DNA from: Minisyncoccota bacterium
GTDB lineage: Bacteria; Patescibacteriota; Minisyncoccia; Phycocordibacterales; UBA1006
Direction: 5' to 3'
NCBI GenBank assembly: GCA_021209525.1
Contig: JAJOIF010000001.1
Span: 10,708-74,707 of the forward strand
Length of the DNA: 64,000 nucleotides
The translations under genes and the position numbers were made by a program. Below are positions 56,309 through 62,246 of this stretch, one piece after another. How positions within the stretch are numbered: position 1 is the stretch's first letter; each line of letters begins with the position of its first letter. Below the pieces are notes generated by a model. That model was not told the origin of the DNA and did no database searches. It saw nothing but the letters and a program-made list of their open reading frames with translations.

Positions 56309-56992
56309 ATGATTTATTTTGATCACGTTTCAAAAGTTTTTGAAGACCGAGACATTTCTCTCGAAGATATTAATCTTTCTATATCTGCAGGAGAATTCGT
56401 TTCTATTATTGGTCCGTCAGGTGCCGGTAAAACCACATTGGTGCGCCTCATTTTGGCAGAGGTGCAACCGACCTCAGGTTCTGTGTCATTTGAATCTCAG
56501 GATTTGAGTTTACTCAGAGAATCTGATATCCCTGCACATCGTCAACGCATCGGTGTTGTTTTCCAGGATTTTCGTCTTTTGAAAATGAAGACTGTCTATG
56601 AAAATATTGCATTCGCTATGGAAGCGGCAGGCAAAACAGACGAAGAAATATTAGCCGATGTTCCTTATGTGCTCAGTCTTGTTAATCTTGACCACAAGAA
56701 AGACCGTTTTCCGCATCAATTGTCAGGCGGTGAGCGTCAGCGTCTCGCTATTGCGCGTGCCATTATCAATCAACCTGATGTGGTTATTGCTGATGAGCCA
56801 ACAGGAAATTTGGACCCAGAAAGCGCCTTTGAAGTTATTGAAATTTTGAAAAAGATTAATGATCTCGGCACCACTATCATCTTGACCACACACAATCCTG
56901 CTATTGTTGACGCACTTAAAAAGCGCGTAATCAAACTTGACCAAGGTCGCATTCAAAGCGATGAAGCACAAGGTAATTATCAGTCAGCATAA
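56309..56992 (+). CDS. ftsE: Cell division ATP-binding protein FtsE
   Basis: Walker A GPSGAGKTT, signature LSGGERQRLAIARA and Walker B VVIADEPTGNLD. Confidence 0.85.
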   Translation: MIYFDHVSKVFEDRDISLEDINLSISAGEFVSIIGPSGAGKTTLVRLILAEVQPTSGSVSFESQDLSLLRESDIPAHRQRIGVVFQDFRLLKMKTVYENIAFAMEAAGKTDEEILADVPYVLSLVNLDHKKDRFPHQLSGGERQRLAIARAIINQPDVVIADEPTGNLDPESAFEVIEILKKINDLGTTIILTTHNPAIVDALKKRVIKLDQGRIQSDEAQGNYQSA

Positions 56993-57004
56993 TTTGTATA
57001 TTAT

Positions 57005-57934
57005 ATGAGCCTAGAAACAGATTTTCGTAGAATTATTAATAATGGAATCAAAACATTCACACGCAACTCAGTAGTGTCTGCTGCGTCTATTTTGATTATG
57101 ACCGTGACACTCTTTGTTATCAGTACGGTCATTTTTTTGAATGCTATTTTGTCATTCTCTCTCAGTCAGATTCAAGACCGTGTTGATGTGAATGTATATT
57201 TCTATCCAGGAACATCAGTAGAACGTATTTTTGCATTTCAAGATGAGTTGGCACTCTTGCCAGAAATTGCATCTCTTGAATTTGTTTCCCAAGAAGACGT
57301 ACTCATTGCATTTCGCGAACGACACGCTGGCGATTTTTTGACTTTGCAAGCACTTGATGAGTTGAATACAAACCCTCTTGGTGCAGTGCTTAATATTCGC
57401 GCATTTAATGCAGGGCAATATGAAGCCATTGATGCATTTATTCAAAGTCAAACAAACTTGATTACAGGACCGCAGGCAATCATTGAAAAAGTGAACTTTA
57501 GACAAAATGAGCAAGTAATTAATCGCTTGAATACTTTGATCAGAACAACACAAAGCCTCGGTTTCTTTGTATCACTCTTCTTTATTATTATTTCAATATT
57601 GATTAGCTTTAATACGATTCGCCTCGCTATTTATAACTCACGCGAAGAAATTGGTATTATGCGTTTGGTGGGTGCTCAGAATCGCTACATTCGTGGACCT
57701 TTTGTTGTTGAGGGATTGTTGTATGGGGTTGTTTCAACAGTACTCACCGTCCTTATTTTGATTCCCGTTACCTTGTGGCTCAGTAAGGCAACAACAACAT
57801 TCTTTGGAGGACTTGATCTCTTTGCGTACTATATCAATAACCTGTTCCAAATTTTCTTGATTCTCTTGGTGGTGGGAATGCTCTTGGGTATGATTTCAAG
57901 CTTCATCGCAGTGCGCCGTTATTTGAAAGTCTAG
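57005..57934 (+). CDS. ftsX: Cell division permease FtsX
   Basis: 309 aa with 4 TM segments and a large first extracellular loop. Located directly after ftsE. Confidence 0.8.
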   Translation: MSLETDFRRIINNGIKTFTRNSVVSAASILIMTVTLFVISTVIFLNAILSFSLSQIQDRVDVNVYFYPGTSVERIFAFQDELALLPEIASLEFVSQEDVLIAFRERHAGDFLTLQALDELNTNPLGAVLNIRAFNAGQYEAIDAFIQSQTNLITGPQAIIEKVNFRQNEQVINRLNTLIRTTQSLGFFVSLFFIIISILISFNTIRLAIYNSREEIGIMRLVGAQNRYIRGPFVVEGLLYGVVSTVLTVLILIPVTLWLSKATTTFFGGLDLFAYYINNLFQIFLILLVVGMLLGMISSFIAVRRYLKV

Positions 57935-58112
57935 AGATGGTGTCATTTCTGAGTATGTAAATGAGAGACTAAAAAAGGTAAAAATATCTACATCTTCAAA
58001 AAAAGCAGCTAGTAATAAAAAACTGGCTGCTTTTTATTATCCCTATATCGTTTTTCTTACCTTTATGGTACAATACACCCATTATTTATTATTTAGTAAC
58101 ACGCACATCATT

Positions 58113-60275: not shown

Positions 60276-60281
60276 AGTACC

Positions 60282-60692
60282 AAATTCCAAGAAACAAATA
60301 ACAAACAAGGTACAAATTTCAAGAAACAAATAACAACTCATTCCCGGAATTTGTGAGACTACCTCGTCTAACGAGGCCTGCGAACAAATGTCCGGGATCT
60401 CGTGGCGACCGCCATAGCTTCGGCGATGGCGGGGCGTAGGAGTACTTATTCCGCGTACATTCCACATTCATGCATAAGTGGTACTTATGCCGCACACTCA
60501 TTAACAAAAAACGAGGCCCGTCAAACGAGCCATAACCCCGGACATTTTCTCCGTTAGCACTGCGAAAATTCCATGTCCGTCGTAGGAACGTTTGACGTTC
60601 CGAAGACGGGCGGGGAAGAGGCGATAATTACAAAAACCGGTTATGCCGGTTTTTTGTGGTTTTAGGATTTGGAGTTTAGTGCTTGGAATTTA
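60282..60692 (+). repeat. MITE-like structured intergenic repeat, copy B (~410 bp, with an internal duplication of the 5' end)
   Basis: Same blocks and terminal inverted repeats as copy A (ACCAAATTCCAAG ... CTTGGAATTTAA). It contains the additional hairpins CCTCGTCTAACGAGG, CCGCCATAGCTTCGGCGATGGCGG and GGAACGTTTGACGTTCC, plus a long-range pairing between AAATGTCCGGG and CCCGGACATTT. Confidence 0.7.
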
Positions 60693-60803
60693 ATATCCAC
60701 ACATCACCGTTCTCTTTAATCGACATCGTCTAACCCCTTGACTCTTTCTAAAAAATATAGAAAAACAAAAAAAATACTGTACCTTGTGATATAATCACTA
60801 CAT

Positions 60804-62246
60804 ATGAATATGAAAAAGTATGTACCCATTTCAGTGGCGCTAGGAATACTTATCCTTCTTGTGCTCACGATGTCATTTACCAGTATTTCACCATATCAAA
60901 CATCTACGGCTCTTGCAAATGCGCTTACCACCGCACAAAATGATGAGGCAGCTCTTCGTCGTCGTCTTGCTGAGCTTGAAAGAGAAATTGCGGAACAGCA
61001 ACAAAAATTAAATGCACAGCGCGGACAATCAAGTTCCATTCAAGGAGAAATTGATAAACTTAAAAATGAAATCAACAAAACGCGCCTTGATATTCAGCGC
61101 AAAAATACTGTCATTCAGCAATTGAGTGGTCAAATTAATCAAAAAGAATCAAAAATTCAAGAACTTGATGCAAAGCTTACTAGAGAACAAGCGTCTCTTG
61201 GTCAAATTATTCGCAAAATGAATGAACTTGACAAGGTAACCCTTATTGAAGTTATGTTGTCGCAGCAGACACTCTCTGATTTTTTTTCTGACAAAGACAG
61301 TTTTGAATCTATTAAATTTGGACTCAGTGAATCATACTCAAATATTCAAAATATAACACAACTTACTCTTGCAGAGCGTCGTGAATTAGAACGCAAGCGT
61401 GTCGAAGAAGCAGACACTAAAGCATCTCTTGAAGAAGAGCGTCGTCGTGTAGAACGCCAAGAAGCAGAGCAACGCAACTTGCTCAATGTGAGTCGCACCA
61501 ATGAAAAAACCTTTGAAGAAATTATTCGCGAACGCCAAGCGCAAGCCGCTCAAATTCGTAACAGACTCTTTGAATTGGCCGGAGGAAGCACACCAGGTCA
61601 AGGGATTCCTTTTGGTGACGCTGTGGTATTTGCAACCGAAGCGCAGCAAAAAACAGGCGTGCGTGCCGCTTTGATTCTTGCTGTTTTGCAACAAGAATCT
61701 GCTATGGGACGCAATGTAGGTACCTGTAATCGCCCCCAAGATACACGCAAGTATACAGACATCATGCCAGGACCAGTACATTTTCAAAACTTTGTAAATA
61801 ATGGTCGCTCATGTACCGGCGCAGCGAGTCCTTGCTCATGGCGTGATGATCAAACTGTTTTCTTGCAAATTGTGCGAGAACTTGGTCTCAGTACCGATCA
61901 GCCGCTCTCATGCCCACTGCCATCAGGTGGTTGGGGAGGAGCTATGGGGCCAACACAATTTATTCCATCAACATGGGTGACTGTGCGAGATGATGTTGCA
62001 CGGCTTGCTGGGGTAAGTACTGCAAATCCATGGAATGCGCGACATGCTGTTCTTGCTACCGGAGTATATATGAGCAGGCTTGGTGCTGCAAATGGTGGAT
62101 TCACCGCAGAGCGCAATGCGGCGTGTCGATACTATTCAGGGAGAAATTGTGGTGAAAGTAGTGTCCCGAACACTTTTTATGGTGATCAGGTTATGCAAAA
62201 AGCAAGTGCCTTCCAAATAGACATTGATTTCTTGAAAGATAACTAA
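60804..62246 (+). CDS. Membrane-anchored coiled-coil protein with a C-terminal lytic transglycosylase (SLT/lysozyme-like) domain
   Basis: TM anchor, a roughly 230-aa coiled coil, then the SLT motifs VLQQESAMG, GAMGPTQFIPSTW and NARHAVLATGVYMSRL. Confidence 0.65.
   Translation: MNMKKYVPISVALGILILLVLTMSFTSISPYQTSTALANALTTAQNDEAALRRRLAELEREIAEQQQKLNAQRGQSSSIQGEIDKLKNEINKTRLDIQRKNTVIQQLSGQINQKESKIQELDAKLTREQASLGQIIRKMNELDKVTLIEVMLSQQTLSDFFSDKDSFESIKFGLSESYSNIQNITQLTLAERRELERKRVEEADTKASLEEERRRVERQEAEQRNLLNVSRTNEKTFEEIIRERQAQAAQIRNRLFELAGGSTPGQGIPFGDAVVFATEAQQKTGVRAALILAVLQQESAMGRNVGTCNRPQDTRKYTDIMPGPVHFQNFVNNGRSCTGAASPCSWRDDQTVFLQIVRELGLSTDQPLSCPLPSGGWGGAMGPTQFIPSTWVTVRDDVARLAGVSTANPWNARHAVLATGVYMSRLGAANGGFTAERNAACRYYSGRNCGESSVPNTFYGDQVMQKASAFQIDIDFLKDN

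Follow-up and report, generated by a model that had tools for sequence, protein, structure and literature searches.

The window analysed here is a stretch of 64,000 nucleotides (nt) from a Minisyncoccota bacterium (assembly GCA_021209525.1, contig JAJOIF010000001.1, positions 10,708 to 74,707 of the forward strand). Between 55 and 64 kb it carries ftsE and ftsX, the genes of the FtsEX complex, followed by a gene for a beta-helix surface protein, a repeat element, and a gene coding for a protein of 480 amino acids (aa) in which a long coiled coil precedes a putative lytic transglycosylase domain. The present work concerns this last protein and its possible control by FtsEX, the best-understood membrane ATP-binding cassette (ABC) machine relaying a mechanical signal to extracellular cell-wall hydrolases. 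We infer that the 480-aa protein is an exported housekeeping peptidoglycan lytic transglycosylase, one of a family found across Paceibacteria (Parcubacteria). A preliminary description of the locus had placed the four genes at the positions listed below, with the beta-helix gene and the repeat element between ftsX and the 480-aa gene, and all of these were found there.

56309-56992, + strand: ftsE, ABC ATPase of FtsEX (TIGR02673 equivalog, 265.9 bits against a cutoff of 264.85; Pfam ABC_tran)
57005-57934, + strand: ftsX, permease-like subunit with an extracellular domain at about aa 48-183 (Pfam FtsX, FtsX_ECD)
58065-60275, + strand: mosaic gene of a CSLREA-type right-handed beta-helix surface protein (Pfam Beta_helix, NosD)
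60282-60691, + strand: structured 410-nt repeat element with imperfect inverted ends
60804-62246, + strand: gene of the 480-aa coiled-coil protein, a predicted lytic transglycosylase (Pfam SLT_2, AlphaFold2 model)
60804-60890, + strand: hydrophobic N-terminus of the 480-aa protein (aa 1-29), modelled as a helix over aa 9-28
60894-61577, + strand: EnvC-like coiled-coil hairpin of the 480-aa protein (aa 31-258; AlphaFold2 secondary structure, EnvC profile match)
61611-62243, + strand: probable family-3 (MltB/Slt35-like) lytic transglycosylase domain (aa 270-480; Pfam SLT_2, motifs, Foldseek)
61695-61697, + strand: codon of the putative catalytic Glu298, within the SLT_2 domain

The FtsEX pair is canonical, and it includes an FtsX extracellular domain in the same genome as the 480-aa gene. 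FtsE exceeds the cutoff of TIGR02673, and the product of the adjacent gene, 12 nt downstream, fits FtsX, for which four membrane-spanning helices and an extracellular part are expected; it is matched above the gathering scores by Pfam FtsX (aa 187-308, E 4e-16) and FtsX_ECD (aa 60-149, E 9e-9). The NCBIfam FtsX models rank best for this protein yet stay below their cutoffs (FtsX_Gpos, 176 bits against 225); more than 4000 homologues of ftsX were found.

Domain architecture of the 480-aa protein

The AlphaFold2 model of the 480-aa protein was computed from 92 homologues (mean predicted local distance difference test score (pLDDT) 86, predicted template modelling score (pTM) 0.56). It opens with a hydrophobic helix (aa 9-28), continues with a pair of long helices (aa 31-143 and 157-258, pLDDT mostly 82-94) connected by a short tip (144-156), and ends in a compact helical domain (aa 270-479). 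A long antiparallel coiled coil of the expected size, about 170-230 residues, is therefore placed N-terminal to a globular domain in the model, which reproduces the arrangement given in the preliminary description: a transmembrane anchor, a coiled coil of some 230 residues and a catalytic domain. The hydrophobic helix supplies the predicted export signal. Its earlier designation as a transmembrane anchor holds in so far as a hydrophobic segment is present, but a cleavable signal peptide fits equally well, since A-x-A-like sites lie past the hydrophobic stretch in the homologues; the segment may be either a cleaved signal peptide or a signal anchor.

The C-terminal domain was assigned by profile, motif and fold. 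Pfam SLT_2 matches aa 277-427 with 34.3 bits (gathering score 24.3) and matches all 20 of the family members tested, and domain profile searches of the family gave no match to M23, CHAP or NlpC/P60. The description of this domain as a lysozyme-like SLT module, instead of CHAP, NlpC/P60 or LytM, is thus borne out, also by its fold: Foldseek returned Slt35/MltB (1ltm, E 6.8e-4; 1d0k; 1qus) and SltB1 (4anr), at E 7e-4 to 1.5e-3 and probability 1.0. Among the 92 homologues, which are diverse and have a mean column identity of 46%, residues Q297, E298, G376-A380, G382, P383 and Q385-P388 show no variation and S299 and M381 hardly any; these make up the QQES and GWGGAMGPxQFIPxTW motifs. E298 aligns to the Glu of the 'GVET' motif in Pseudomonas aeruginosa SltB1, and GGAMGPTQFIPST aligns to GAMGLPQFMPSS of the same enzyme. 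Loss of the catalytic Glu had been named in advance as an observation that would speak against the proposed function; Glu298 is present in every one of the homologues.

Taken together, the C-terminal domain is probably a family-3 (MltB/Slt35-type) lytic transglycosylase and a putative enzyme. With MltB, Slt35 and SltB1 (Pfam SLT_2) it shares the catalytic-domain fold and the Glu-Ser and GAMGxxQFxPS motifs; unlike the 480-aa protein, these proteobacterial enzymes are lipoproteins or soluble periplasmic proteins and have no coiled coil, and they lack a Cys-containing insertion that the 480-aa protein carries at aa 325-345. Orthology to MltB itself was ruled out by scores far under the cutoffs of the NCBIfam equivalogs (TIGR02282, 17.5 bits against 281; TIGR02283, 23.7 against 248), and the family is best described as a divergent subfamily of family 3.

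A sequence variant was seen in the gene. One A, at window position 61516, is missing from both the metagenome-assembled genome (MAG) GCA_021208345.1 and the Logan assembly of SRR12390694 (loci L091 and L092), which splits the gene into products of 289 and 223 aa; two sibling MAGs and two further runs have the gene uninterrupted, at 480 aa. The split gene is either a sequencing error or a true frameshift variant in the population.

Similarity of the coiled coil to EnvC

A profile of 20 family members was compared with 177,635 PDB sequences. The best match was E. coli EnvC from the FtsEX-EnvC complex (8hd0_E, 35.8 bits, E 4e-8), the second was again EnvC (6tpi_A), and the fourth was Vibrio EnvC (8tzk_E, E 1e-4), so that the E. 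coli EnvC chains of FtsX-bound structures head the PDB matches. The alignment is gapless and pairs profile positions 42-248 with EnvC 34-240. When the profile was limited to the coiled coil, EnvC scored 34 bits (E 2e-7) and the next entries 23 bits or less. The third-best match of this coiled-coil profile, at 23 bits, was 7o97_A, a 93-residue construct from a hypothetical protein of Candidatus Giovannonibacteria; such a score is too weak for family membership, but the construct is likewise a coiled coil of this bacterial group.

As spurious matching is common with coiled coils, controls were run. A reversed-sequence profile retrieved designed coiled coils and tropomyosin alone, at no more than 19 bits, and EnvC was not among them. 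Conversely, a coiled-coil profile of 92 sequences gave native EnvC 42.3 bits, aligned over 202 residues with no gap, and reversed EnvC 0.9. EnvC was also shuffled in 7-residue blocks, which preserves composition and heptad phase; 1000 such shuffles had a mean of -1.9 bits (standard deviation 5.8) and a maximum of 30.6, and with blocks of 14 and 28 residues the maxima were 21.8 and 32.7 bits, the latter being the highest of all 4000 shuffles. Native EnvC lies far above the reversed and shuffled controls, indicating that the similarity is specific to the order of residues along about 200 positions. The sequence of the family's coiled coil is, by this measure, specifically EnvC-like. In E. coli, EnvC residues 114-160 contact two FtsX extracellular domains (PMC11627006), and these residues align to the hairpin tip of the family. 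A tip motif, 'LLxSxSxxDF', that the family would have in common with PcsB and CwlO could not be confirmed and was dropped.

The known partners of FtsEX resemble the 480-aa protein in different respects. Like EnvC (E. coli; 6TPI, 8HD0), it is predicted to be exported and has two helices paired into an antiparallel coiled coil (about 200 residues) and a C-terminal globular cell-wall domain; EnvC, in contrast, ends in a LytM domain that is degenerate and inactive, and it activates amidases that are separate proteins, whereas the domain of the 480-aa protein is itself a probable lytic transglycosylase. PcsB (CHAP), CwlO and RipC (NlpC/P60) are hydrolases of Gram-positive bacteria and mycobacteria under direct activation by FtsEX; like the 480-aa protein, they unite coiled coil and catalytic domain in one exported chain, in bacteria with a single membrane (PMC11627006). 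Those enzymes cleave stem or cross-link peptide bonds, while the target of the domain described here would be the glycan backbone. An arm of this kind controls a LytM, CHAP or NlpC/P60 domain in EnvC, PcsB, CwlO and RipC, and SLT_2 takes the place of such a domain in the 480-aa protein. A 2024 review of FtsEX partners names LytM, CHAP and NlpC/P60 only (PMC11627006); with a lytic transglycosylase as partner, the combination would be new. A tie between the control network of division hydrolases and lytic transglycosylases is known from Caulobacter, through DipM and SdpA-SdpB (PMC10336132; PMC11627006); that tie is indirect, as a LytM factor binds separate soluble lytic transglycosylases with no coiled-coil fusion.

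Family distribution, gene neighbourhood and the ftsX junction

A protein search at E <=1e-3 yielded over 2200 clusters from Patescibacteria and Paceibacteria, with lengths almost always in the range 430-485 aa, and at least 591 stretches of the species-level genome collection encode a relative; titles of the records with relatives include Nomura-, Kaiser-, Zambryski-, Campbell-, Taylor- and Vogelbacteria. Where the records give a name, it is 'lytic murein transglycosylase', 'MltB' or 'CwlO-like', the last originating from pipelines of the Joint Genome Institute (JGI). A literature search combining FtsX with the SLT domain, Patescibacteria, and the candidate phyla radiation with lytic transglycosylases found no paper describing the family. 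This is a large, widespread and uncharacterised family of predicted coiled-coil lytic transglycosylases of Paceibacteria.

The neighbourhood of the family gene was surveyed by tblastn at 80 species-level loci, over flanks of up to 10 kb. The gene for ribosomal protein L25 (rplY) lies upstream on the same strand at 69 of the 71 loci with enough sequence, and those for L31 (rpmE) and release factor 1 (RF1, prfA) lie downstream at 64 of 71, counted at loci with at least 1.5 kb of downstream sequence; between the family gene and L31 the median gap is 81 nt. The conserved order is thus L25, family gene, L31, RF1, and at the closest relative (73% identity) it reads pheS-pheT-L25-gene-132aa-L31-RF1. 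Its place among translation genes marks the family gene as a core gene, and this array, together with the at least 591 genomes, fits a core growth function.

Linkage to ftsEX was not part of this pattern: neither ftsE nor ftsX was found within 10 kb of the family gene at any of the 80 loci. The synteny on which the preliminary description had made its proposal depend therefore failed, in the survey as well as in a MAG of the same strain, described below, where the two loci lie on separate contigs. In four relatives ftsEX itself occurs as a prfB-ftsE-ftsX block or an ftsE-ftsX pair followed by unrelated genes, and no peptidoglycan hydrolase was found beside it at these loci, which implies that the partner of FtsEX is encoded elsewhere. 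To our knowledge, envC, pcsB and cwlO are likewise unlinked to ftsEX. Linkage does not define this class, and the functional idea survives, without support from genomic context.

One locus had a permease gene of the FtsX family next to the family gene (L081, 8742-9950): it encodes a 402-aa MacB/LolC-like protein, lies 32 nt upstream and has no adjacent ABC ATPase gene. Being the only such neighbour among the 80 loci, and not FtsX proper, it was attributed to chance.

The adjacency seen in the window was traced to the beta-helix gene. Its product matches Pfam Beta_helix (60 bits) and NosD, and falls just short of the CSLREA N-terminal model TIGR04214 (24.5 bits against a cutoff of 25), the motif here being CSLRDA; judging by the sequence of its paralogues, translation likely starts at M17 (58113). 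The MAG GCA_021208345.1 is of the same strain as the window; outside the beta-helix gene the only differences between the two are five single-base indels, and four of these lie in homopolymer runs. Its contig 5 carries ligA-prfB-ftsE-ftsX and then a gene for a 1123-aa beta-helix/PG_binding protein; its contig 19 carries gatB-pheS-pheT-L25, a gene for a 759-aa beta-helix protein, the lytic transglycosylase gene, a 135-aa gene, L31 and RF1. The window follows contig 5 through 58442 and contig 19 from 59520, and 58443-59519 fits neither. Identity to the contigs falls off inward from both ends of the gene: it is identical to the ftsX-adjacent 1123-aa paralogue through 58195 (the first ~130 nt) and, from about 59900 (the last ~380 nt), to the 759-aa paralogue upstream of the lytic transglycosylase gene, and the middle 1.1 kb has a protein identity of about 30-40% to either. 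The members of this mosaic family are located as follows.

58065-60275: the window
5192-7471: locus L091
8966-12337: locus L093
45-2207: locus L095

The same 720-aa beta-helix allele, linked to the lytic transglycosylase gene, was found on a 4.7-kb contig of the sibling MAG GCA_021209085.1 (L095). The start of this contig coincides with the 5' end of the beta-helix gene, and all other sibling contigs end in or near that gene. None of the sibling assemblies has an independent contig bridging ftsX and the lytic transglycosylase gene, and the junction is supported by the window's own assembly only. An exact look-up of the 720-aa protein found nothing on record. Small patchwork differences among the sibling MAGs were seen at 59658-59699. 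The beta-helix genes look like a recombining family of variable surface proteins, which is also the point where assemblies break, and ftsX and the lytic transglycosylase gene are adjacent either through recombination of paralogous surface-protein genes at strain level or through a chimeric join over shared 5' sequence. Closeness to ftsEX is a local junction and not a conserved linkage, and is no evidence for an FtsEX mechanism. More generally, gene proximity that arises from a junction in a variable paralogous gene is a warning and should not be read as an operon.

The 528-nt spacer between the beta-helix gene and the 480-aa gene contains the repeat element. Its imperfect inverted arms of 24 nt lie at 60282-60305 and 60668-60691, and its left end is tandemly duplicated (60281-60304 and 60313-60336); a partial copy, also bounded by inverted ends, is present at 28844-29058, and a solo end at 55933-55957, just past prfB. 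The predicted RNA secondary structure is very strong (folding z-score -6.5) and a terminator-like hairpin lies within the element at 60632-60654, upstream of the lytic transglycosylase gene. Rfam gave chance-level matches only for the spacer and no family. The element could be of the miniature inverted-repeat transposable element (MITE) type or a structured RNA. Closer to the gene, an extended -10 box, TGATATAAT (TGnTATAAT), at 60787-60795 ends 9 nt before the ATG, which suggests that the lytic transglycosylase gene has a promoter of its own. No Shine-Dalgarno sequence was found between this box and the ATG (60787-60806), and the short distance together with this lack suggests an mRNA with little or no leader. 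In most homologues of the family the start corresponds to Met3.

The remaining features of this part of the window flank the genes discussed above.

54865-55022, + strand: two tRNA genes, upstream of prfB
55024-55911, + strand: prfB, release factor 2 (RF2), 295-aa short form (Pfam PCRF, RF-1)
62251-62658, + strand: gene of a 135-aa small membrane protein, starting 5 nt past the stop codon of the 480-aa gene
62709-62963, + strand: rpmE (ribosomal protein L31), the conserved downstream neighbour
63036-64000, + strand: prfA (RF1), extending past the window end (tblastn with RF1 of relative L001, 77.5% identity)

The 135-aa protein has one N-terminal membrane helix and no match in Pfam or NCBIfam. 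A 132-aa homologue, 22% identical, is found at the same position in L001-L004; the gene is kept only in the closest relatives and is absent at most of the 80 loci. On the other side, prfB opens the conserved prfB-ftsE-ftsX block, a triad that also occurs in relatives L085 and L087. The PCRF match of its product begins at profile position 95 of 194, and the tRNA gene ends 2 nt upstream of its ATG, leaving no room for the usual N-terminal region of RF2 or for a programmed frameshift site. RF2 of the relatives is 294-297 aa long, and the prfB product accordingly looks, in sequence, like the naturally N-terminally short RF2 of the clade.

A possible role with FtsEX

On the basis of its architecture and coiled-coil similarity, the 480-aa protein may be an FtsEX-controlled septal autolysin of Paceibacteria, a reading that we consider tentative and put at somewhat under an even chance. 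The wider proposal, that an EnvC-type coiled coil fused to a lytic transglycosylase serves as partner of FtsEX throughout Paceibacteria, is conceivable and held with similar caution. According to this proposal, the tip of the coiled coil would dock on FtsX at its extracellular domains, turnover of ATP by FtsE would shift the conformation of the coiled coil and free the lytic transglycosylase domain, and the freed domain would cut glycan strands at the division site. The partnership had already been put forward in the preliminary description; the architecture, the EnvC-like coiled coil and the catalytic Glu on which it drew have stood, and its synteny, found in 0 of 80 genomes, has not.

Several observations weigh against control by FtsEX. 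In addition to the missing linkage in the survey and the separate contigs of the same-strain MAG, a profile of the tip only (aa 112-200) retrieved no EnvC, PcsB or RipC from the PDB, the full coiled-coil profile did not detect PcsB or RipC there, and Vibrio EnvC was only a weak match (E 1e-4 to 0.1); of the proven FtsEX partners, EnvC is the one to which a relationship in coiled-coil sequence was found, and PcsB and RipC are not. In the Foldseek ranking for the hairpin, EnvC and RipC come after SMC arms, and fold by itself does not tell these apart; the coiled coil of RipC superposes on the model with a target-normalised template modelling score (TM-score) of 0.73. The coiled coil is conserved almost evenly from end to end, the tip being barely above the rest, which leaves no clear signature of a binding site.

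The main rival explanation is a housekeeping lytic transglycosylase that acts independently of FtsEX, its coiled coil being a spacer, an oligomerisation element or an autoinhibitory arm; we regard this explanation as a serious one, though short of probable. The enzyme would then be controlled in some other way, for example by another membrane protein, by proteolysis or by the small downstream membrane protein, in parallel to RipA in Corynebacteriales. In its favour are the lack of ftsEX linkage in 80 genomes and the tight linkage with L25, L31 and RF1, the structurally generic nature of long antiparallel coiled coils, and a hairpin-tip profile that matches no FtsEX partner, and a precedent for a coiled-coil hydrolase controlled without FtsEX is on record (PMC9897464). 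The 135-aa membrane protein is, moreover, translationally coupled to the gene in the lineage of the window, but it is missing from most of the family. Such independence would leave unexplained a coiled coil that is EnvC-like over its whole length in a manner dependent on residue order, and FtsEX of these genomes needs a partner, none of which is encoded adjacent to it.

Two further explanations were considered. That the four genes ftsE, ftsX, beta-helix and lytic transglycosylase form a functional operon or cluster is suggested by their location on the same strand within 6 kb; this is effectively excluded, as in the same-strain MAG the two blocks occupy separate contigs and have different flanking sequence, the point of joining falls within a mosaic gene with paralogues and is bridged by no sibling assembly, the 528-nt spacer places a terminator-like hairpin ahead of the lytic transglycosylase gene, and none of the 80 genomes has the linkage. 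A secreted lytic transglycosylase on a long stalk could also be a host-directed weapon or access tool that breaches the cell wall of a host. The predicted export and rod-like arm would suit such a function, type IV pilins and variable surface proteins are encoded in the wider window and on the same-strain MAG contig, and Patescibacteria are commonly epibionts (PMC11623550). Against this stand the near-universal, single-copy-like occurrence of the gene in a housekeeping array, L25-gene-L31-RF1 (64-69 of 71 genomes), and its high conservation (46% mean column identity over 92 diverse members), and the explanation is improbable. Genes of host interaction are usually variable and lie in accessory regions.

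If the 480-aa protein is indeed controlled by FtsEX, it would be the first FtsEX effector to cut the glycan backbone and not peptide bonds, and the FtsX-binding coiled coil would be a module open to exchange, recombined in this family with a catalytic domain of a fourth class. The pairing of an EnvC-like arm with a lytic transglycosylase in hundreds of ultra-small Patescibacteria would then broaden the chemistry under FtsEX control, and would point to a candidate septal autolysin in a huge lineage, for the most part uncultured, in which there has been essentially no study of cell division.

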